64,000 bases of DNA from Desulfobacteraceae bacterium (GTDB lineage: Bacteria > Desulfobacterota > Desulfobacteria > Desulfobacterales > UBA5852): assembly GCA_014237395.1 (NCBI GenBank), contig JABZFP010000041.1, positions 273,742-337,741 of the forward strand, given 5' to 3'. The translations under genes and the position numbers were made by a program. How positions within the stretch are numbered: position 1 is the first letter of the stretch; every line of letters begins with the position of its first letter. The notes beneath the pieces are model-generated. The model was not told the DNA's origin. It did no database searches and worked only from the letters and a program-made list of their open reading frames with translations. Positions 29,582-41,658 of the stretch are shown here, piece by piece.

Positions 29582-29605
29582 TTCGATTCCATTGGTCGTA
29601 TCACC

Positions 29606-29695
29606 TCATGTTCCCCTTGCGGGCTGGATTTGGCACCTTGTGGATCAGGTTGCCGGGCGGTCGTCAGGCCAGTTCCCTATCGCCTCTCAACATGA
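29606..29695 (-). promoter_or_regulatory. SAM-I (S-box) riboswitch aptamer controlling metY-metX-metW.
   Basis: Minus strand reads UCAUGUU-GAGAGGCGAUAGGGAACUGGCCUGACGACCGCCCGGCAACCUGAUCCACAAGGUGCCAAAUCCAGCCCGCAAGGGG-AACAUGA. It contains the conserved AGGGA, CUGGCC, GGCAACC and GGUGCCAA.UCC blocks and a 7-bp P1 stem. Confidence 0.85.
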
Positions 29696-29811
29696 ATATG
29701 TTTCGAAGAAGGATAGGCGTTTTTAGGCGCCTGTCAAGTTTTACGAAACTGAAACATCGCTTCTTACGAGTCCATCACGTTTTAATCCTGTTGATGCGGC
29801 GGTATTGGCAG

Positions 29812-33473: not shown

Positions 33474-33878
33474 TTACGGGAAATTGCGCGTTTGTTGACC
33501 GGTGCCGACGATGACGCCGGCCGCGTCGATCGCCTTGACCGTAAACTGGTAGCGATGGGAGCCGCTGGGCGGACAGGGACCGTTGTACCCGTCTTGCAGG
33601 GCCCCGGCGGGAATCACGTCCGATCCATCGTAGGCCACGGTGCCGCCGCCATGGTTCCAGGTCGGCACGTCGCGGTCCTTGAGTTTGATCTGCAGCGTTT
33701 TGGTGGCTGCAGGTATGTTTTTTACCCGAATGACCGGCGACTGGCTTGAGCACCGATCCGATGCCTGCCAGGCGAAGTCGACGGACAGTTCCACGGCATC
33801 CGGGCTTACCTGGGCGGTGGCGCATCCGAATAACAGCAATGCTGCTCCTGCCACCAACCGTAACACATGGTTGTTCAT
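33474..33878 (-). CDS. YbhB/YbcL-family (PEBP / Raf-kinase-inhibitor-like) lipoprotein.
   Basis: Lipobox LLFGC. PEBP signature GPCPPSGSHRYQFTV. Confidence 0.8.
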   Translation of the reverse strand: MNNHVLRLVAGAALLLFGCATAQVSPDAVELSVDFAWQASDRCSSQSPVIRVKNIPAATKTLQIKLKDRDVPTWNHGGGTVAYDGSDVIPAGALQDGYNGPCPPSGSHRYQFTVKAIDAAGVIVGTGQQTRNFP

Positions 33879-34082
33879 CCCGTTTCTCCTTTTACGGTCA
33901 TGTCGCGTTGGACGTTATCAGGGCCGGTCAATGGCAACCGCCATGTGCGCGCCGTGGGGCCGTCCTTGTCCGATCCCGTCACCCTATCCTTCAATACCAC
34001 AGATTGTCCTTCCCACAAACGCGATGCCTGGCACGGTAAACCAACACGGCCTTACATGCTATACGTTATATTTACATTTATA

Positions 34083-34112
34083 TTGACATTTGTAGTCGGG
34101 GGATTCTATGGT
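34083..34112 (+). promoter_or_regulatory. Candidate sigma-70 promoter of lexA.
   Basis: TTGACA (34083-34088), 18-nt spacer, TATGGT (34107-34112). An AT-rich UP-like tract lies upstream. Confidence 0.35.
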
Positions 34113-34148
34113 TTCGATCAACAAGCTCGATCTACCGGAAGGAATGCC

Positions 34149-34781
34149 ATGCGACCGGACATTACCGTAAAGCAGCAGCGCCTGCTGGATTATTTGGAAC
34201 AACACATCAACGATTGCGGACGTGTACCCAGCCTGCGCGAGGCCGCCGCGGATATCGGCGTCAGTCACGCGGCCGTGGCCCAGACCCTCAAGGCCCTGGA
34301 GCAGAAAGGCGTCGTGCGGCGCGATGGCCGCTACAGCCGCAACCTGCTGTTGTTGAACCGGGCGCAGGAACCCATCGCCGGTCAACGGTGGCGGGAGGTG
34401 CCCCTGATCGGTCGTGTTACGGCCGGGCGGCCCATGTATGCGCAGGAGGAATGGGATGGCAGTGTGGTGATCGATGCGGCCTTATTTCCGGGGGGCGACC
34501 TGTTTGCCTTGCGGGTGAAAGGAGATTCCATGCGGGATGCGGCCATTCTGGACGGCGATATCGCCATTTGTGAGCCCCGGCAGTACGCGGCGAACGGCGA
34601 AATTGTGGTGGCGCTGATCCATCAGGAAGAGGCCACGGTCAAGCGGTTTTTTCTGTTTGCGGATCACATTGAACTGCGCCCGGAAAACAAGGCTTATCCG
34701 GTGCTGCGTTACACCTTCGGCGACGTCCTGGTGCAGGGCAAGGTTGTCGGGTTGCAGCGTGGCCCCGAGACGGTTCAATGA
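34149..34781 (+). CDS. lexA: LexA repressor (S24 peptidase).
   Basis: wHTH: LREAAADIGVSHAAVAQTLKALEQKG. Ala-Gly cleavage site in VTAGRP. Catalytic Ser in VKGDSM and Lys in EATVKRF. ATG at 34149 follows GGAAGGA. Confidence 0.9.
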   Translation: MRPDITVKQQRLLDYLEQHINDCGRVPSLREAAADIGVSHAAVAQTLKALEQKGVVRRDGRYSRNLLLLNRAQEPIAGQRWREVPLIGRVTAGRPMYAQEEWDGSVVIDAALFPGGDLFALRVKGDSMRDAAILDGDIAICEPRQYAANGEIVVALIHQEEATVKRFFLFADHIELRPENKAYPVLRYTFGDVLVQGKVVGLQRGPETVQ

Positions 34782-34863
34782 CCCGGCGTGATGCACATCG
34801 GCGCATGCCACGATGCCGCTCACGGTCGTCCAGCGGTGGGGGATGATGATGGGGATGGACGTC

Positions 34864-35727
34864 ATGCCGCCATTGGAACCTGATGGTATCAGCCGTGTGA
34901 GGGTGGGCACCAGCGGCTATTCCTATCCGGAGTGGGTGGATGCCGGTTTTTACCCGGCCGGCACCCGCTCGGGGCGGATGCTGCCGCTTTACGCCCAGCA
35001 GTTTTCCGCGGCCGAACTCAACTATACCTGGTACCAGATGCCGAAAGCCGTGGCGATCGACCGCATGCGGCGTCAAGTGCCGCCGCATTTTCGTTTCGCC
35101 GTGAAACTGACGCGCACCATGACCCACGAGGTGGATCGCGACCAGTGGCGCGGACAGGTGGCCCGCTACCGGGACGGTGTGGCGCCGTTGGCCTTGGCAG
35201 GGCAGCTGGCCGCGGTGTTGCTGCAGCTGCCGGCATCGTTCGAGCGGACGCGACCGCGCCGCCATTATCTGGCCGCACTGCTGGAGGAGCTTGCTGAGCT
35301 GCCCCTGGCGGTGGAGTTTCGCCACGTGTCATGGGCCACGGACCGCGTGTTTGCCGAGCTGGAAAACCGTCGGGTGGCCTTGGTGGCGGTGGATGCGCCG
35401 GCCCTGCCGTATCTTTTCCCTCCGTTGGATGTGGTGACCAGTCCGGATCTTTTTTATGTCCGTTTTCACGGTCGCAACCTGGCCGGCTGGCGCTCGGGCA
35501 ACATGCAACAGCAGTTTGACTATGCTTACGGCGCAGCGGAACTGCATGAATGGGCCGAGACGCGCATCGCCGCCATGGCCAGCCGTTCCCGTCGCGGCCT
35601 GGTGTTCTTTAATAACCATGTCCGGGCCCAGGCGCCGGCCAACGCCCGGCAGTTGATGGCCATGTTGGCCAAGCAGGGCCTGCCGGAGGATGCGTCGTGG
35701 AGCGACATGTCATCCACATCAACGTAG
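34864..35727 (+). CDS. DUF72 (YecE-like) family protein.
   Basis: VGTSGYSYPEWVDAGFYP, LYAQQFSAAELNYTWY, FRFAVKLTRTMTHE, AVEFRHVSW, YVRFHGRN are the conserved DUF72 blocks. The likely start is ATG at 34864; the ORF opens at 34813. Confidence 0.85.
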   Translation: MPPLEPDGISRVRVGTSGYSYPEWVDAGFYPAGTRSGRMLPLYAQQFSAAELNYTWYQMPKAVAIDRMRRQVPPHFRFAVKLTRTMTHEVDRDQWRGQVARYRDGVAPLALAGQLAAVLLQLPASFERTRPRRHYLAALLEELAELPLAVEFRHVSWATDRVFAELENRRVALVAVDAPALPYLFPPLDVVTSPDLFYVRFHGRNLAGWRSGNMQQQFDYAYGAAELHEWAETRIAAMASRSRRGLVFFNNHVRAQAPANARQLMAMLAKQGLPEDASWSDMSSTST

Positions 35728-36869
35728 CGGATTTCGCCGTGGCGGTGGAACGCGCCATGGATCGTCGCCTGCGGGAACGCCCGGTCGTCATTGCACCCGA
35801 CGGGGTTTCCCGGGCCGTGGTGTACGACATGAGTGAGGAGGCCTATCAGGCCGGCGTGCGGAAGGGCATGGCCCTGCGCCGGGCGGTGCGGTTGTGCCCG
35901 GACGTGCGGATCCTGCCGCCCCACCCGGAACGCTATGAACAGGTGATGCAGGCCCTGGTGCGGCAGGCGCTGCCCTATTCGCCGCTGATCGAGCCGGGCG
36001 AGGCGGACGGCCACCTGTTCGTGGATGTCACCGGCACCAGCCGCCTTTTCGGGCCGCCGGTGGATGTGGCCTGGCGTCTGCGTCGTCAGGCCCGGGCCGA
36101 GTTGAGCCTGGCACCGGGTTGGGCTGTGGCGCCCAACAAGCTTGTGGCCAAAGTCGCCACCCGCCTGGTGAAGCCTGACGGTGACGCCATCGTTCGTGCC
36201 GGGGATGAGGCCCAGTTCCTGGTGCCGGTTCCCCTGCACCTGGTGCCGGGCATCGACCATCGGGATCTGGTGCGGCTGGCGGGCTTCAATTTACGGCAGG
36301 CGGGCCAGGTCGCATCCCTGAGCCTGGATGCGCTGCAAGCACCGTTCGGCCGCCGGGCCCTCCACTTGTTTGAAGCGGTGCGAGGCATCGACCGTTCGCC
36401 GGTCCGGCCCGTGGGTCACCAACCGCCCCGGGTGGTGACGACGCACACATTCGAGGAGGATGCCCACGCGGTGCCGATGGTGGAGGGTGCCCTTTACGGT
36501 CTGGTGGAAAAAACGGGACAGGCGTTGCGTCAGCAGTCCCTGGCGGCGGGGCGGGTGATTGTTACAGTGGACTTTTCCGACGGGTTGCGCGGTGCTCGCC
36601 AACGGTCGCTGCGACCGGCCACGGCGAACGACATGGCCCTGTTCGCAACGGCCCGGTCCGTGCTCCATATGGCCTGGCGGCGACGGGTGCGGGTCCGTCA
36701 CCTGCGCCTGATGTGTGATCGCCTGACCTTTCCCCCGGCGCAGCGGGAACTGTTCCCGGCGGCGGCGGATGCGGATCGCCGGCCAACGCGTTTGGTATCT
36801 GCCCTGGACCGGATCCGGCAGCGTTTCGGCGCAGATGCGATAAAGGTCGGCCGCACCCTGGCGGCCTGA
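35697..36869 (+). CDS. imuB: ImuB-like Y-family DNA polymerase homolog, predicted to be catalytically inactive.
   Basis: The Y-family N-terminus reads VIHINVADFAVAVE where DinB has IIHVDMDCFFAAVE. IEPGEADGHLFVDVT stands where DinB has IEPLSLDEAYLDVT. GTG start at 35697 with GGAGGA 6 nt upstream, overlapping DUF72 by 31 nt. Confidence 0.75.
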   Translation: MERHVIHINVADFAVAVERAMDRRLRERPVVIAPDGVSRAVVYDMSEEAYQAGVRKGMALRRAVRLCPDVRILPPHPERYEQVMQALVRQALPYSPLIEPGEADGHLFVDVTGTSRLFGPPVDVAWRLRRQARAELSLAPGWAVAPNKLVAKVATRLVKPDGDAIVRAGDEAQFLVPVPLHLVPGIDHRDLVRLAGFNLRQAGQVASLSLDALQAPFGRRALHLFEAVRGIDRSPVRPVGHQPPRVVTTHTFEEDAHAVPMVEGALYGLVEKTGQALRQQSLAAGRVIVTVDFSDGLRGARQRSLRPATANDMALFATARSVLHMAWRRRVRVRHLRLMCDRLTFPPAQRELFPAAADADRRPTRLVSALDRIRQRFGADAIKVGRTLAA

Positions 36870-37012
36870 TCCCACGCGTTTCCAGCGGTTATTTTGCGCA
36901 ATCTCGGCGTCAGAAAGCAATTTTAATCCTCGACATACGTGAGTATGCTTGCGGTTAAAATTGCTTTCTTCCTTGACCTTGCTCAAAATCCCTCGCCGGA
37001 AACGCGTGGGAT
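36869..37012. repeat. 144-nt nested imperfect inverted repeat between imuB and dnaE2.
   Basis: Outer 15-bp arms 36869-36883 / 36998-37012 (ATCCCACGCGTTTCC / GGAAACGCGTGGGAT). Middle arms ATTTTGCGCAA / TTGCTCAAAAT with 1 mismatch. Inner 15-bp arms 36912-36926 / 36955-36969 (AGAAAGCAATTTTAA / TTAAAATTGCTTTCT). Apex CATAC-gtga-GTATG. Confidence 0.85.
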
Positions 37013-37060
37013 ACGATTCTGAAAATCAACGTTATCTTTTGAAAAGGTTTTCCTGCCGGT

Positions 37061-40000
37061 ATGGTGCCATTGACTGTCCGATCCCATTACTCCCTCATGT
37101 GGGGAACATCCTCCGTCAGGCGGCTGTGCCGGGCGGCGCGGCGCATGGGCTACACGCGCCTGGCCCTGACGGATACGGACAACCTTTACGGACTGTGGCC
37201 GTTTCTGGCGGCCTGCCGGCGTGAAGGCATGACGCCCATCGTGGGGGCCGAGGTCACTGATCCGGAGGGCCGCGGCCGGGCGGTTTGCCTGGTGGCCAAT
37301 GCTGCCGGCTACGGAAACCTCTGCCGCCTGCTGACGGCCCGTCACATGGCGGGTGCCTTCCGTTTGGCGACGGCCCTGCCCGACCGGGCGGAGGGCCTGG
37401 TGGTCCTGACCGGGACGCCCGATCTGCTCGAACGCTGGCATGCCGCCGGTGTTCGGGTGGCGGCGGCCCTGCCCCGGCGACCGCTGCCCGCGGCCCATCC
37501 CTTGCGGCAGATTGCCCGCCGCAACCGTCTCCCGGTGGTGGCGACGCCGGGCAGTTTTTTTCTGGACCCGGGTGAGCATGCCACGCATCGTCTTTTGCGG
37601 GCCATCGATCGGAAAACAGCCCTGGATCGCCTTGCGGTACAAGACGTGGCACCGGCCGACGCCTGGCTGGCCCCGCCCGCCCGTTATCGCCAGCGGTTTG
37701 CCGCCTGCCCCGAGGCGGTTGCGGCGACGCATGCCCTGGCGGAAGAACTGACGTTTACCGGTCCGGCATTCGGCCTGGTGATGCCACCCTGGCCAACGGA
37801 GGACGGTCAAAAGATCCCGCCGGATGCCGCTTTGCGAAAATCAGCTTACCGCGGTGCCCGGCGCCGCTACGGACGCGAATTGCCGGAAACCGTGGTGGAT
37901 CGGCTGGAACACGAACTGCAAGTGATCGCCCACATGGGGTTTTCCACTTATTTTCTTGTGGTGCGGGATATCGTTCGTCCCAGTTCACGCACGTGCGGGC
38001 GGGGGTCGGGTGCCGCCTCGTTGGTGGCCTACTGCCTGGGCATTACCAACGTCTGCCCGATCAAGCACAATCTCTATTTCGAGCGCTTCCTGAATCCCGG
38101 TCGAACCGATCCGCCCGACATCGATGTGGATTTTGCCTGGGACGAACGCGATGCCGTGCAGCAGGCCGTGCTGGCAACCTACGGGGAGCACGCGGCCATG
38201 GTGTGCACCCATATCCGGTTTCAGCCCCGCATGGCGGTGCGGGAAACAGCCCGGGTCTACGGATTGACCGAAGGGGAGATCGGCCGTGTCACCCGCCGTC
38301 TGCCCTGGTACTGGCGGACGGACGGTCCGCCCGAGGCCCTTTTGGCGGCGGTCCGCCAGCGGCCGGAAGCGCGGTCGCTGACGTTTCCGGCACCCTGGCC
38401 GGAAATCCTGTCCCACGCCGAACGGATTGTGGGCATTCCCCGTCATCTGTCCGTTCACTCGGGCGGGGTCGTCATCACCCCGGCCCCGGTGGACCACTAT
38501 GTTCCGGTGCAGCGGGCCGCCAAGGGGGTGCCCATCATCCAGTGGGAAAAGGATGCCACGGAAGACGCCGGCCTGGTCAAGATCGATCTTTTGGGCAACC
38601 GCAGCCTGGGCGTGATCCGGGATGCCCTGGCCAACGTCCGGACGTCCGGCGGCCAACTCGACGAACAGCGCTGGGAACCGGAAGAAGATTTCGCCACCCA
38701 GGAAGCCGTGGCCCAGGGCAAAACCATGGGCTGTTTCTACATCGAAAGCCCGGCCATGCGGCTGCTTCAGAAAAAAGCCGGCGTCGGGGATTTCGCGCAT
38801 CTTGTGATCCACAGCAGCATCATCCGCCCGGCGGCCAATGAATTCATCCAGGAATATATCCGTCGCCTCCACGGCGGCGCCTGGGATCCGATTCATCCTT
38901 TGCTGACCGATGTGCTGGCGGAAACGTTCGGGATCATGGTCTACCAGGAGGATGTGTCCCGGGCGGCGGTTGCCCTGGCCGGGTTTTCCCATGCCGAGGC
39001 GGATCGCCTGCGCAAGGTGATGTCCAAAAAGGACCGCGAATGTCATCTGAAGGATTTCCGTGCGCAGTTTTTGGCCGGGGCCCGGGCCAACGGCATCGCC
39101 GTCCCGACCATCGAAGCCGTGTGGGATATGATGATGAGCTTCAGCGGCTATTCGTTTTGCAAACCCCACAGTGCTTCTTATGCCCGGGTGTCTTTCCAGG
39201 CCGCCTACCTCAAGGTGCACCATCCTGCTGAATTCATGGCGGCGGTCATCAGCAACCAGGGCGGCTACTACGCCACCTTCGCGTATGTATCCGAGGCGCG
39301 GCGCATGGGGCTGCGGGTGTTGCCGCCCGATATGACCGATAGTCGGCAGCGATGGACCGGTCGGGGGGCCACCGTGCGTGTGGGCCTGCAGGCCGTCAAA
39401 GGGCTGGGGTCCGCTACCGCCGCCCGCATCGTTGCGGCCCGCCGCCGGCAGCCATTCCGTGATGCGACGGATTTTTTGAACCGAGTTCGACCGGACGAGA
39501 CAGAGGCCCAGGCCCTGATTCGTTGTGGCGCCCTGGACGCCCTGGCGGGGTCGGGCGGTCGGGCGGGGTTGATGTGGACGCTGGCCTGCTGGCAGCGGCG
39601 CTGTGACCGACCGCCGGTGCACGACACGCTGTTCGAGGCGCCGACAGAAAAGCCCCCGCCCGGATTGCCGGAGGAGGATGCCTTGGAGCGGCTGCGGCGT
39701 GAATTTACCGTCCTGGGGTTTTTGTGCGATCGTCACCCCATCCGTCTTTACGCCGGCCTGCTGCAATCCCGGAAAACGGTCAAGGCGCAAGATCTGGGCC
39801 TCTGGCTGGGGCGGCGAGTGCGTTTCGGGGGCTGGTTTATCGCCGGCAAAGTGGTGCACACCAAGCAGGGTGACCCCATGGAGTTTTTAACCTTTGAAGA
39901 TGAAACCGACACGATTGAAACCACCTTTTTCCCGGCGATCTATCACCGTTTTTGCCACATGTTGGATTGGGGGCGGCCCTATCTGTTGACCGGCCGCGTG

Positions 40001-40177
40001 GAGACGGACTGGGGGGCGGTTACTCTGACCGTAGACCATATCGCCCCGTTGCCGCCGCTCCGCTCCCTGACGGAAGCGCGGGAGGAGGTATTGCACCGGG
40101 AATCGGAAATGGTTAAGCTGATCTCTCAGGCGGGCGACGGCGGCAGACCCGGGCGCGGGCTGGCGGCTTCCCGTTGA
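37061..40177 (+). CDS. dnaE2: Error-prone DNA polymerase III alpha-like subunit DnaE2 (ImuC).
   Basis: 1038 aa. N-terminal PHP domain (LALTDTDNLYG). Pol III alpha core (GRGSGAASLVAYCLGIT, PDIDVDF). OB-fold C-terminus. Sits downstream of imuB. Confidence 0.9.
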   Translation: MVPLTVRSHYSLMWGTSSVRRLCRAARRMGYTRLALTDTDNLYGLWPFLAACRREGMTPIVGAEVTDPEGRGRAVCLVANAAGYGNLCRLLTARHMAGAFRLATALPDRAEGLVVLTGTPDLLERWHAAGVRVAAALPRRPLPAAHPLRQIARRNRLPVVATPGSFFLDPGEHATHRLLRAIDRKTALDRLAVQDVAPADAWLAPPARYRQRFAACPEAVAATHALAEELTFTGPAFGLVMPPWPTEDGQKIPPDAALRKSAYRGARRRYGRELPETVVDRLEHELQVIAHMGFSTYFLVVRDIVRPSSRTCGRGSGAASLVAYCLGITNVCPIKHNLYFERFLNPGRTDPPDIDVDFAWDERDAVQQAVLATYGEHAAMVCTHIRFQPRMAVRETARVYGLTEGEIGRVTRRLPWYWRTDGPPEALLAAVRQRPEARSLTFPAPWPEILSHAERIVGIPRHLSVHSGGVVITPAPVDHYVPVQRAAKGVPIIQWEKDATEDAGLVKIDLLGNRSLGVIRDALANVRTSGGQLDEQRWEPEEDFATQEAVAQGKTMGCFYIESPAMRLLQKKAGVGDFAHLVIHSSIIRPAANEFIQEYIRRLHGGAWDPIHPLLTDVLAETFGIMVYQEDVSRAAVALAGFSHAEADRLRKVMSKKDRECHLKDFRAQFLAGARANGIAVPTIEAVWDMMMSFSGYSFCKPHSASYARVSFQAAYLKVHHPAEFMAAVISNQGGYYATFAYVSEARRMGLRVLPPDMTDSRQRWTGRGATVRVGLQAVKGLGSATAARIVAARRRQPFRDATDFLNRVRPDETEAQALIRCGALDALAGSGGRAGLMWTLACWQRRCDRPPVHDTLFEAPTEKPPPGLPEEDALERLRREFTVLGFLCDRHPIRLYAGLLQSRKTVKAQDLGLWLGRRVRFGGWFIAGKVVHTKQGDPMEFLTFEDETDTIETTFFPAIYHRFCHMLDWGRPYLLTGRVETDWGAVTLTVDHIAPLPPLRSLTEAREEVLHRESEMVKLISQAGDGGRPGRGLAASR

Positions 40178-40207
40178 TCCGCGATGACGACAGGAGGGGG
40201 AGAACCG

Positions 40208-40834
40208 ATGCGAAAACAACGATGGACAGCCGTATGGGCGTTATCGACCGTCCTGCTGGCGTTACTGGGGGCGTGTGCGACACCGATCACCCACCCGGTA
40301 AAAATGGGCTACAGCGGCCATTCAGGTCTTGCGGTCGAACAGCCGGTGGCGGTGGGAATTCAGGCCTTTCGCGACCAGCGCACCGAAGGCGATCGCTATG
40401 TGATCGGCTACCGCCAGATAGGGCGCGGGGAGCGTGAGCGGTATGTCGCCAGTCCGGACGACATGGCCCGTTCGGTGACCCGTATGGCCGGCGAGCTCAT
40501 TCGTCAAAAGGGCGGCACGCCGGATGTTTTGAAGGGCTGGGACTATTCGCCGGAGCAGATGCTGGCCCTGTCGGATGCCTTCGATGTCTTTGTCGGGGGC
40601 GACATCCAGCAGCTACGGTGTGATGCCGAAAAACGGCTGATGCACACCCGCATGGTGATGGAACTGGAGATGGTGGTGTATGTGGGCAAGGTCCGGGAGG
40701 GCATCGTGCACCGGCGTCCGGTGCGTATGCGCAGCGAGCGTGTTGCGGCCACCTTCGGGCCCCGCGAGCTGGAGCGGTTTTTGAATGACATGGTGTCCGA
40801 GGCCCTGGAAACAGGCTGTCGGGACATTCCCTGA
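40208..40834 (+). CDS. Hypothetical lipoprotein.
   Basis: AGGAGG RBS. Lipobox LLALLGAC. Begins 31 nt after the dnaE2 stop. Confidence 0.6.
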   Translation: MRKQRWTAVWALSTVLLALLGACATPITHPVKMGYSGHSGLAVEQPVAVGIQAFRDQRTEGDRYVIGYRQIGRGERERYVASPDDMARSVTRMAGELIRQKGGTPDVLKGWDYSPEQMLALSDAFDVFVGGDIQQLRCDAEKRLMHTRMVMELEMVVYVGKVREGIVHRRPVRMRSERVAATFGPRELERFLNDMVSEALETGCRDIP

Positions 40835-40860
40835 GAGCGGCCGGCAAGACCGCGCCGCCC

Positions 40861-41658
40861 TCAGAGGATGGTTTTCAGGCAACGGTTGACCTGGGCGAAA
40901 AGCGTCGTTGGCAATGCCAGCAGGTGGATACCGGCGGTCTGGCCTTCCAGAAACTCGGCAATGGGAAACTTTGTCCCGTCCAGCCGCATGAAATGGCCGC
41001 CGGCCGCTTCCAAAATAACCCGCACGGCGGCCAGATCCTGGTAGGATTCATTTGCGATGAGGGCGGCCTCCGCACACCCCGTGGCGACATAACAGATATG
41101 GGCGGAGGTGCACCCGAGGTTGAGCTGCTTGCCGGGGAATCCATTTTCGTAGTGCTGGTGAAAGCGCGAATAGGTCAGCAGGACGCTTTCATCGTTGATG
41201 CTCTCCTGGGGGGAGACCTGAATGGTCTGTGTTCCCCGGAAGGCCTTCTGCCCCGCCACGGCATGGAATAAATCCCCGGTGGCCGGCATGAAAAAGGCGC
41301 CGAGCACCGGCCATTTGTTGTCCAGCAGTGCGATGGACATCCCCCAGACCGGGATGCCGGCCATAAAATTGGACATGCCGTCCAGGGGATCGAAAATCCA
41401 TACATAGCGCTTGGCATCGTGGGTGTAGGCTTCATCCGGATTTTGACCGTCGAAGCAATGGTGGTCGGGGAATCGTGCCTGGAGCGCTTTCTGGAAAAGC
41501 CGGTTCAACTGCAGTTCGGTCCGCGTAATGAGGGTTTCGTCAAATTTGACCTGGGGCGCACCGTGGCCGTAGAATTCGAGCGCTTCCTCCCCGGCTTTCT
41601 TGATAAAGTCAATGGCGAACGACTGCAGATCTTCGATGGGCACGTAGTCCTTGTCCAA
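40861..41658 (-). CDS. Inositol monophosphatase family protein (SuhB/CysQ-like).
   Basis: WIFDPLDGMSNF and later GCTSAHICYVATG motifs. The probable start is TTG at 41658, preceded by GGGAGG; the ORF opens at 41736. Confidence 0.8.
   Translation of the reverse strand: MDKDYVPIEDLQSFAIDFIKKAGEEALEFYGHGAPQVKFDETLITRTELQLNRLFQKALQARFPDHHCFDGQNPDEAYTHDAKRYVWIFDPLDGMSNFMAGIPVWGMSIALLDNKWPVLGAFFMPATGDLFHAVAGQKAFRGTQTIQVSPQESINDESVLLTYSRFHQHYENGFPGKQLNLGCTSAHICYVATGCAEAALIANESYQDLAAVRVILEAAGGHFMRLDGTKFPIAEFLEGQTAGIHLLALPTTLFAQVNRCLKTIL

Follow-up and report, generated by a model that had tools for sequence, protein, structure and literature searches.

A DUF72 gene accompanies an inactive Y-family polymerase and a DnaE2-like polymerase in ImuA-less cassettes of at least three phyla

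The canonical translesion cassette, (lexA)-imuA-imuB-dnaE2, is found in Caulobacter, Pseudomonas and Mycobacterium (where the first gene is imuA′). It is a damage-regulated operon in which an inactive Y-family adaptor with a clamp motif is paired with an active enzyme of the DnaE family, and the first gene overlaps that of the adaptor. Here we analyze a 64-kb stretch of DNA (64,000 nucleotides (nt) of contig JABZFP010000041.1 from a Desulfobacteraceae bacterium, hereafter the window), in which lexA is followed by genes for a protein of the DUF72 family, an inactive Y-family polymerase (iPolY, or PolY in gene orders) and a DnaE2-like polymerase (Table 1). The locus resembles the canonical cassette in its predicted Y-family adaptor and DnaE-family enzyme and in the overlapping first gene, and regulation by DNA damage would follow by analogy. 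However, it has neither a RecA/SulA-like ImuA nor an ImuB-C domain, its Y-family protein is DinB-like, and DUF72 comes first, overlapping iPolY by 31 nt compared with 113 nt (locus L092) and 74 nt (L093) for imuA and imuB. The place that imuA has in the canonical cassette is taken by DUF72, a conserved gene that heads the polymerase pair in the same orientation and often overlaps it.

A closer match is provided by the iPolY-DnaE2 (gbDinB2-like) cassettes, which lack ImuA in both operon and genome, and for which RecA has been proposed to bind the iPolY tail instead (Timinskas & Venclovas 2019). The window locus falls within this group: it shares the iPolY family, the clamp motif, a tail resembling the RecA N-terminus, DnaE2 and an upstream lexA, and it likewise has no ImuA and no ImuB-C. 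What sets it apart is the extra gene, which appears in Table S4 of the 2019 study only as “{1}” between LexA and iPolY in two rows, and which we identify as DUF72, constantly associated with one iPolY subclade in different phyla. DUF72 went unnoticed because the 2019 notation cannot show a gene 5′ of iPolY that is not preceded by LexA.

DUF72 has also been recorded in PolB2-iRadA-PPB2 operons, where it occurs in 119 of 1823 polB2 neighbourhoods (6.5%) as the eighth most frequent family, with SRAP-DUF72-iRadA-PPB2-PolB2 as an example order (CSBJ 2025, PMC11791011). As in the window, DUF72 stands there beside a damage-inducible, proofreading-deficient translesion polymerase, sometimes with LexA; the polymerase is instead of the B family, a RecA-like iRadA is present, and the frequency of 6.5% compares with about 90% here. 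The first reading of the window, made from the sequence only (the sequence-only reading), had presented the cassette as a first functional context for DUF72, a priority that belongs to this polB2 survey and to a repair nuclease prediction of 2013. Our literature search returned no link of DUF72 with imuB or dnaE2; a mention of “DUF72” in a paper on a phage nuclease proved to concern DUF723.

The order of genes around DUF72 recurs in about 100 independent loci and the linkage is therefore not due to chance. First, a look-up centred on DUF72 in three Desulfobacterales clusters (69–70% identity, three different neighbourhoods) gave lexA-DUF72-PolY-dnaE2 in all three. Second, we assembled a PolY-centred set with one genome per GTDB species, annotated by tblastn, which comprises 80 loci, nearly all from Desulfobacterales and 55–79% identical. 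Three of these are cut by contig ends, and among the 77 informative Desulfobacterales species loci DUF72 lies immediately 5′ of iPolY in 72. The identities of the four cassette genes co-vary (r 0.60–0.81), and intergenic distances range from overlaps to about 700 nt, with a DUF72-PolY overlap of 25–31 nt in seven species. Apparent truncations of DUF72 in L017, L026 and L043 were rejected as true losses, as dnaE2 is frameshifted in the same long-read metagenome-assembled genomes (MAGs).

Third, the linkage was followed into Desulfobulbales with the Desulfocapsa sulfexigens iPolY of the 2019 supplement as a query against metagenomes, and DUF72 is present in 11 of 14 Desulfocapsa-like loci. One contig, on which iPolY shares 98% identity with the D. 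sulfexigens query, has the order lexA-DUF72-PolY-dnaE2 with gaps of 5, 15 and 10 nt, and the open reading frame (ORF) between lexA and PolY matches PF01904 with an E-value of 1e-56. For Desulfocapsa, DUF72 is therefore the gene that the 2019 table leaves unnamed as “{1}”, and very likely it is so in the row for D. oleovorans as well. Compared with the window, Desulfocapsa-like DUF72 is 58–61% identical and PolY 43–48%, and DUF72 is thus the more conserved of the two across orders.

Finally, when 1.84 billion cluster representatives were searched exhaustively for DUF72 relatives, the cassette DUF72 clade came out as one cluster, the next full-length relatives being 40–47% identical. Searches with two of the latter led to eight relatives whose loci we inspected; in all eight of these distant clusters, DUF72 was followed directly by a Y-family gene of 385–397 amino acids (aa) and then by a DnaE-type gene of 938–1046 aa. 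These loci derive from a Spirochaetes MAG, Treponema primitia, Treponema sp., a Myxococcota MAG and metagenome bins; their genes often overlap by 4 to 29 nt, and lexA is upstream in none. Their PolYs belong to the same iPolY subfamily as those of the loci above, with which they share the H-x-N, G-H and QxxLF motifs and the tail resembling the RecA N-terminus at an iPolY identity that falls to 32–44%. The DUF72-iPolY-DnaE2 module is present in at least three phyla, and the linkage is not peculiar to one strain, recurring in Desulfobacterales, Desulfobulbales, Spirochaetota and Myxococcota. The sequence-only reading counted lexA as part of the cassette, which is correct for the window; across the eight distant loci lexA proves to be a variable part of the module. 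We conclude that lexA, which heads the cassette in Desulfobacterales and Desulfobulbales, is an interchangeable, lineage-specific addition and that DUF72-iPolY-DnaE2 is the conserved module. The main idea of the sequence-only reading, a partnership of DUF72 with the polymerase pair, is confirmed over a wider range of bacteria than that reading had put forward.

Some of the related loci carry further genes or unexpected labels. In Treponema primitia (L117, 4518–4907), a 129-aa HTH_3 (XRE-type) gene takes the place of lexA, an indication that the module may be under another damage regulator there. A gene for an Fpg/Nei-type glycosylase lies directly 3′ of dnaE2 in the lexA-less locus L112 (10973–11884; also L113, 8907–9818), a hint at a second base-damage enzyme nearby. 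A small 23S_rRNA_IVP (four-helix-bundle) gene is inserted in the cassette between lexA and DUF72 in one lineage and between DUF72 and iPolY in another (L002, 6302–6628; L004, 7906–8310; also L005–L009). The contigs of L056 and L089, from MAGs labelled Promethearchaeota and Hyphomicrobiales, are 58–63% identical to Desulfobacterales genes and are probably mis-binned.

One copy of the cassette is carried by the mobilizable MOBQ plasmid Do28_1 of Desulfosarcina ovata (L090, NZ_AP021877.1 55228–74040), where a TraA relaxase gene and an IS200/IS605 transposase lie at a distance of 3 kb; our survey of plasmids for DUF72 gave four matches only. PGAP labels the iPolY of Do28_1 a “hypothetical protein” and its DnaE2-like protein “DNA polymerase III subunit alpha”. 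In the window, the G+C fraction of the cassette (34500–40500) is 0.63–0.68, compared with 0.52–0.60 in 5 kb of flank on each side. The high G+C fraction and the plasmid copy are together consistent with horizontal spread of the cassette.

A tblastn search for imuA and RecA-like genes, for which E. coli RecA and a pair of canonical ImuA sequences served as queries, gave no match with E ≤ 1 either in the window or in the ±10 kb viewed around each of 90 related loci, in agreement with the sequence-only reading. The ImuA models of NCBIfam gave no match among the cassette and flanking ORFs. Both canonical ImuA proteins give no Pfam match, and Pfam-annotated contexts alone therefore cannot exclude imuA.

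The Y-family gene was initially taken for imuB, an assignment that we revise. The encoded protein has 390 aa compared with 488–524 in canonical ImuB, represented by comparators from plasmids of Azospirillum (524 aa) and Mycetohabitans (488 aa); it matches E. coli DinB with an E-value of 1e-28 and canonical ImuB with 1e-7 over only 94 aa. No ImuB-C/DUF6504 domain is found in it by Pfam, and DUF6504 is matched by the Azospirillum ImuB. Alignment with E. coli DinB reveals the catalytic replacements D8→N9, D10→A11 and, after a one-residue insertion, E104→H106. Only the equivalent of Asp103 is retained, at a position that varies among relatives. With the equivalents of Asp8 and Glu104 lost, the protein is predicted to be unable to polymerize. 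Its C-terminal part carries a putative β-clamp-binding motif, QRELF (aa 349–353), followed by the tail RLVSALDRIRQRFGADAIKVGR (aa ~361–388), whose pattern is that of the RecA N-terminal oligomerization motif and which matches the published motifs of the gbDinB2-like group. These features are conserved: N9 in 96 of 97 loci, G105-H106 in 96 of 97, and Q349, L352 and F353 in at least 90 of 94; D371, R374, F377 and G378 are conserved as well. The protein is homologous to ABW66046.1 and AGF78394.1, the listed proteins of Desulfococcus oleovorans and Desulfocapsa sulfexigens. As judged by its sequence, the window Y-family gene is a “gbDinB2-like (other inactive)” iPolY, closer to DinB than to ImuB.

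The DnaE-type protein contains PHP, DNA_pol3_alpha, finger, HHH_6 and OB domains. Its PDIDVDF motif and a third Asp align with the catalytic residues of Taq Pol III α, and D353 and D355 are invariant in 82 loci. The PHP motif is degenerate, with replacements at HxH, at the D of LDG and at the H of TDH, and the alignment ends at Taq residue 1107 of 1220, that is, without the C-terminal τ-binding domain. Designation of this gene as dnaE2 stands as far as architecture and context are concerned, and it is on these that we base the name “DnaE2-like”. The NCBIfam models do not bear it out, as both score below their cut-offs (error-prone NF004225, 586 bits against 939; DnaE NF004226, 646 against 1002), and the protein is 29–34% identical to annotated error-prone polymerases/DnaE2 and to DnaE1 alike.

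The identification of the second gene as DUF72 was correct: the protein matches PF01904 with an E-value of 5.7e-60 over the full profile (positions 1–217 of 217). Three DUF72 crystal structures have been available since 2004–2005, and TM1631 (1VPQ) and EF0366 (1VPY/1ZTV) belong to the same family as the window protein (E 2e-39 to crystallized TM1631). Its AlphaFold2 model (confidence, pLDDT, 80) has template modelling (TM) scores of 0.77–0.86 to DUF72 crystal structures. The polar core consists of E51, N53, K81, Q121, E151, R153, D177, R200, H202, R204, N205 and N250/N251, residues that are invariant or show at most one substitution per position across 83–85 loci. By profile, predicted fold and core residues, the window protein is a member of DUF72 (PF01904), a family of 9,316 clusters at 50% identity (E ≤ 1e-3). 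The ratio of nonsynonymous to synonymous substitution rates (dN/dS) is 0.13–0.16 for DUF72 against the three closest relatives that still have it, compared with 0.19–0.24 for PolY and 0.14–0.15 for DnaE2 (two of the three relatives, the contig of the third ending before dnaE2). DUF72 is under purifying selection equal to or stronger than that on the polymerases.

A DNA-repair nuclease role has been predicted in silico for TM1631, which was described as similar to endonuclease IV (EndoIV) with a DNA-sized groove modelled (Konc et al. 2013, PMC3828134). The predicted DNA- or phosphate-contacting residues N44, K72, H79, Q114, R145 and R191 of TM1631 correspond to N53, K81, H88, Q121, R153 and R200 in the window protein; Tyr47 is replaced by Trp56, and Gln50, Trp53 and Arg54 are not conserved. 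The sequence-only reading had mentioned such an EndoIV-like comparison. In our Foldseek search of the PDB, EndoIV/APN1 appear after the DUF72 structures at TM scores of only 0.46–0.54 (E 1e-5 to 3e-3). DUF72 shares the general fold class of EndoIV and UVDE, with a TM score of only about 0.5 to EndoIV/APN1; sequence matches are absent, no three-metal site was identified in it, and no Pfam or NCBIfam family except DUF72 is matched by the window protein. By sequence it is thus assigned to DUF72 and not to EndoIV/UVDE.

LexA in the window scores 164 bits with TIGR00498 (cut-off 111) and has Peptidase_S24 and LexA_DNA_bind domains. Inspection of the translation by eye shows the Ala-Gly cleavage site (VTAG), the Ser of GDSM and the Lys of VKR. 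With the winged helix-turn-helix, the S24 peptidase, the Ala-Gly site and the Ser/Lys dyad all recognizable in its sequence, the protein is a bona fide LexA. Upstream of the gene lie hexamer repeats of the T(T/G)ACA type, TATATTTACATTTATATTGACATTTGTAG, together with a −35 element TTGACA (34083–34088) and, at 18-nt spacing, a −10 element TATGGT (34107–34112), the only σ70-like site within 33850–41000. We detected no terminator-like sites between the cassette genes, and from the one promoter and the lack of intergenic terminators the cassette is predicted to be a single transcription unit.

The promoter region contains a 19-bp element made of tandem hexamers, with the consensus TTTACATTGACATTTACAT and more than 84% agreement per position; the window copy (34071–34089) overlaps the −35 element. 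In 73 of 75 loci the element overlaps the −35 and is separated from the lexA gene downstream by no more than 450 nt; in the remaining two it lies about 670 nt upstream. It gives one weak stray match in about 1.08 Mb. TTTACATTGACATTTACAT is a good candidate for the operator of the cassette LexA and may represent an undescribed type of LexA operator in Desulfobacterota. In place of TTTACATTGACATTTACAT, the Desulfocapsa-like loci (L094–L103) have two palindromic AATGTACAT copies around the promoter. The lexA leader in L014, L019, L022, L027 and L031 is filled by short tandem repeats, such as CTGACACCTGAAACC, which push the conserved promoter element 400–670 nt from lexA.

From what was observed (which genes are present and in what order, how well they are conserved, which catalytic residues are lost and how selection acts), we propose that the window holds a chromosomal copy of an ImuA-less translesion cassette with the core DUF72-iPolY-DnaE2, in which DUF72 is a damage-processing enzyme; we give this reading a probability of roughly 0.55. 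For the biochemical steps we infer the following course. DNA damage would lead to RecA filaments and self-cleavage of LexA, so that the single promoter overlapping the TTTACA/TTGACA repeats is derepressed and the four genes are transcribed together. iPolY would act as a non-polymerizing adaptor that binds the β clamp through QRELF, contacts RecA through its tail, the task of ImuA in other cassettes, and recruits the DnaE2-like enzyme, which, with its catalytic aspartates kept and a dead PHP domain, would perform synthesis. DUF72 would be a TIM-barrel phosphoesterase-like enzyme, distantly related to EndoIV and UVDE, that acts on damaged DNA; it may incise beside lesions, or clean blocked or abasic 3′ ends, and so provide a usable primer end for a polymerase without proofreading. 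Since iPolY keeps the motif of the RecA N-terminus, RecA rather than DUF72 probably fills the role of ImuA.

The operon link to an error-prone polymerase pair in several phyla is the strongest contextual clue yet to the role of DUF72, which gains a testable role in DNA-damage tolerance, while the ImuA-less iPolY-DnaE2 cassettes gain a third, previously unnamed gene. A bolder version holds that DUF72 is the obligatory nuclease, for lesion incision or 3′-end cleaning, of a distinct and widespread three-component mutasome and also serves PolB2 elsewhere; we regard this version as tentative and on balance doubtful. If DUF72 were indeed a nuclease, the whole family, E. coli YecE included, would acquire a biochemical function, and the cassette would represent a nick-and-bypass route that needs no ImuA.

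Several observations weigh against the proposed reading. We know of no experiment on any DUF72 protein, and the literature on YecE, TM1631 and yunF consists of mentions of prophage integration sites and two modelling papers only. The DUF72 crystal structures are without bound metal, and the nuclease idea comes from modelling only (PMC3828134). The Foldseek similarity to EndoIV is weak and intermixed with matches to sugar epimerases and MbnB, and UVDE is absent from the top 50 PDB matches, among which the kinship of DUF72 with UVDE claimed in PMC11791011 was not reproduced. The candidate operator TTTACATTGACATTTACAT is non-palindromic and its binding by LexA is putative. Distant DUF72 genes occur in unrelated contexts, such as a Rhodanobacter plasmid (33% identity) with no repair neighbours, and the linkage within Desulfobacterota may reflect a single ancestral event. 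DUF72 is lost in 5 of the 77 species; in these five, lexA and iPolY are intact and dnaE2 is present as far as the contigs reach (to DnaE2 residue 394 in L067). C-terminal remnants of DUF72 persist in L012 and L067, part of the gene is deleted internally in L075, and nothing is left in L024 and L072. The Geobacter and Nitrospira rows of the 2019 table (also Syntrophobacter) read LexA→iPolY→DnaE2 with no gene between LexA and iPolY; their iPolY is of a different subclade, with H-I-T at the N-terminus. The five losses and the Geobacter and Nitrospira cassettes without the extra gene indicate that DUF72 is dispensable in some backgrounds.

We considered three other explanations. DUF72 might act on a substrate other than DNA (a nucleotide, a damaged dNTP or a small-molecule signal) and aid translesion synthesis indirectly. 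The predicted site of TM1631 resembles the phosphate-binding sites of nucleotide kinases (PMC3828134), the nearest folds include sugar epimerases and MbnB besides EndoIV, and some DUF72 members lie outside any repair context; set against the repeated tight linkage of DUF72 to two unrelated DNA polymerase systems, plus SRAP and Fpg, and the DNA-sized groove modelled in TM1631, these points leave such a role unlikely. Slightly less probable still is a structural role in which DUF72, without catalytic activity, stands in for ImuA as a subunit and bridges iPolY, DnaE2 and/or RecA, a substitution already entertained in the sequence-only reading. The TIM barrel is unlike the RecA fold, and the iPolY tail implies a partner with just that fold; the enzyme-like polar core residues are all invariant, the sister cassettes lack both DUF72 and ImuA, the five species without DUF72 keep their polymerases, and polB2 operons with DUF72 also encode the RecA-like iRadA. 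These arguments outweigh the shared position and overlap arrangement of DUF72 and canonical imuA, the absence of imuA, and the near-universal presence of DUF72 with the H-x-N iPolY clade. That DUF72 is an unrelated passenger, trapped early and kept by descent and co-transfer, would accommodate its variable spacers (overlap to about 700 nt), its occasional loss and the insertion of other genes such as 23S_rRNA_IVP, but is improbable given that the order is kept in at least three phyla with different flanks and regulators while iPolY fell to 32–44% identity, that purifying selection on DUF72 matches that on the polymerases, that the plasmid copy retains DUF72, and that the association with polB2 operons is independent.

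The layout of the cassette is given in Table 1; the coordinates and the order lexA, DUF72, Y-family gene and dnaE2 had been read correctly to the base.

Table 1 Features of the cassette region in the 64-kb window
Feature	Position	Strand	Remarks
lexA	34149–34781	+	First operon gene in this lineage; self-cleaving repressor
DUF72 (YecE/TM1631-like TIM barrel)	34864–35727	+	Alternative ATG start at 34813
Inactive Y-family polymerase (iPolY, gbDinB2-like)	35697–36869	+	IMS and IMS_C; 390 aa
Extended hairpin	36869–37012	+	Fills the iPolY-dnaE2 spacer
DnaE2-like Pol III α-family polymerase	37061–40177	+	Pfam domains; predicted active
Predicted lipoprotein, 216 aa	40184–40834	+	Cassette membership doubtful
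Cassette promoter and candidate operator	34066–34112	+	Hexamer repeats, −35, −10

A gap of 82 nt separates lexA from DUF72. iPolY starts at a GTG (35697) located 31 nt within DUF72, with GGAGGA 6 nt upstream, as first described. Homologues of iPolY begin with M-[ED]-R at the equivalent position, which supports this GTG as the right start codon.

The 191-nt spacer between iPolY and dnaE2 is filled by a hairpin of about 145 nt that begins at the iPolY stop codon and in which inverted repeats of 19 nt and 15 nt are nested. As RNA, it has a predicted folding energy of −78.1 kcal/mol (z −7.7), and in the closest relative, L010, the fold is kept by compensatory changes from CCCACGCG/CGCGTGGG to TTTTCCCC/GGGGAAAA. 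The hairpin has no second copy in the window, and neither it nor the leader gave an Rfam match in an E-value-mode scan of 33800–40400.

The cassette is flanked by genes for a PEBP-family lipoprotein, a histidine kinase, an uncharacterized lipoprotein and an inositol monophosphatase. The downstream lipoprotein ORF (40184–40834), which starts 6 nt past dnaE2 and has a lipoprotein-type signal (…LLALLGAC…), gave no match in Pfam, NCBIfam or PADLOC, and PADLOC matched no defence system for DUF72 or iPolY either. Homologues of this ORF lie 3′ of dnaE2 in six related loci only, which make up the closest subclade and of which five are distinct: L010–L012 (67–77% identity), and L001 (identical to L054) and L064 (36–37%). 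No tRNA genes are present in the window. The sole Rfam family there is a SAM riboswitch (RF00162) at 29603–29698 on the minus strand, which scores 51 bits, above the gathering score.

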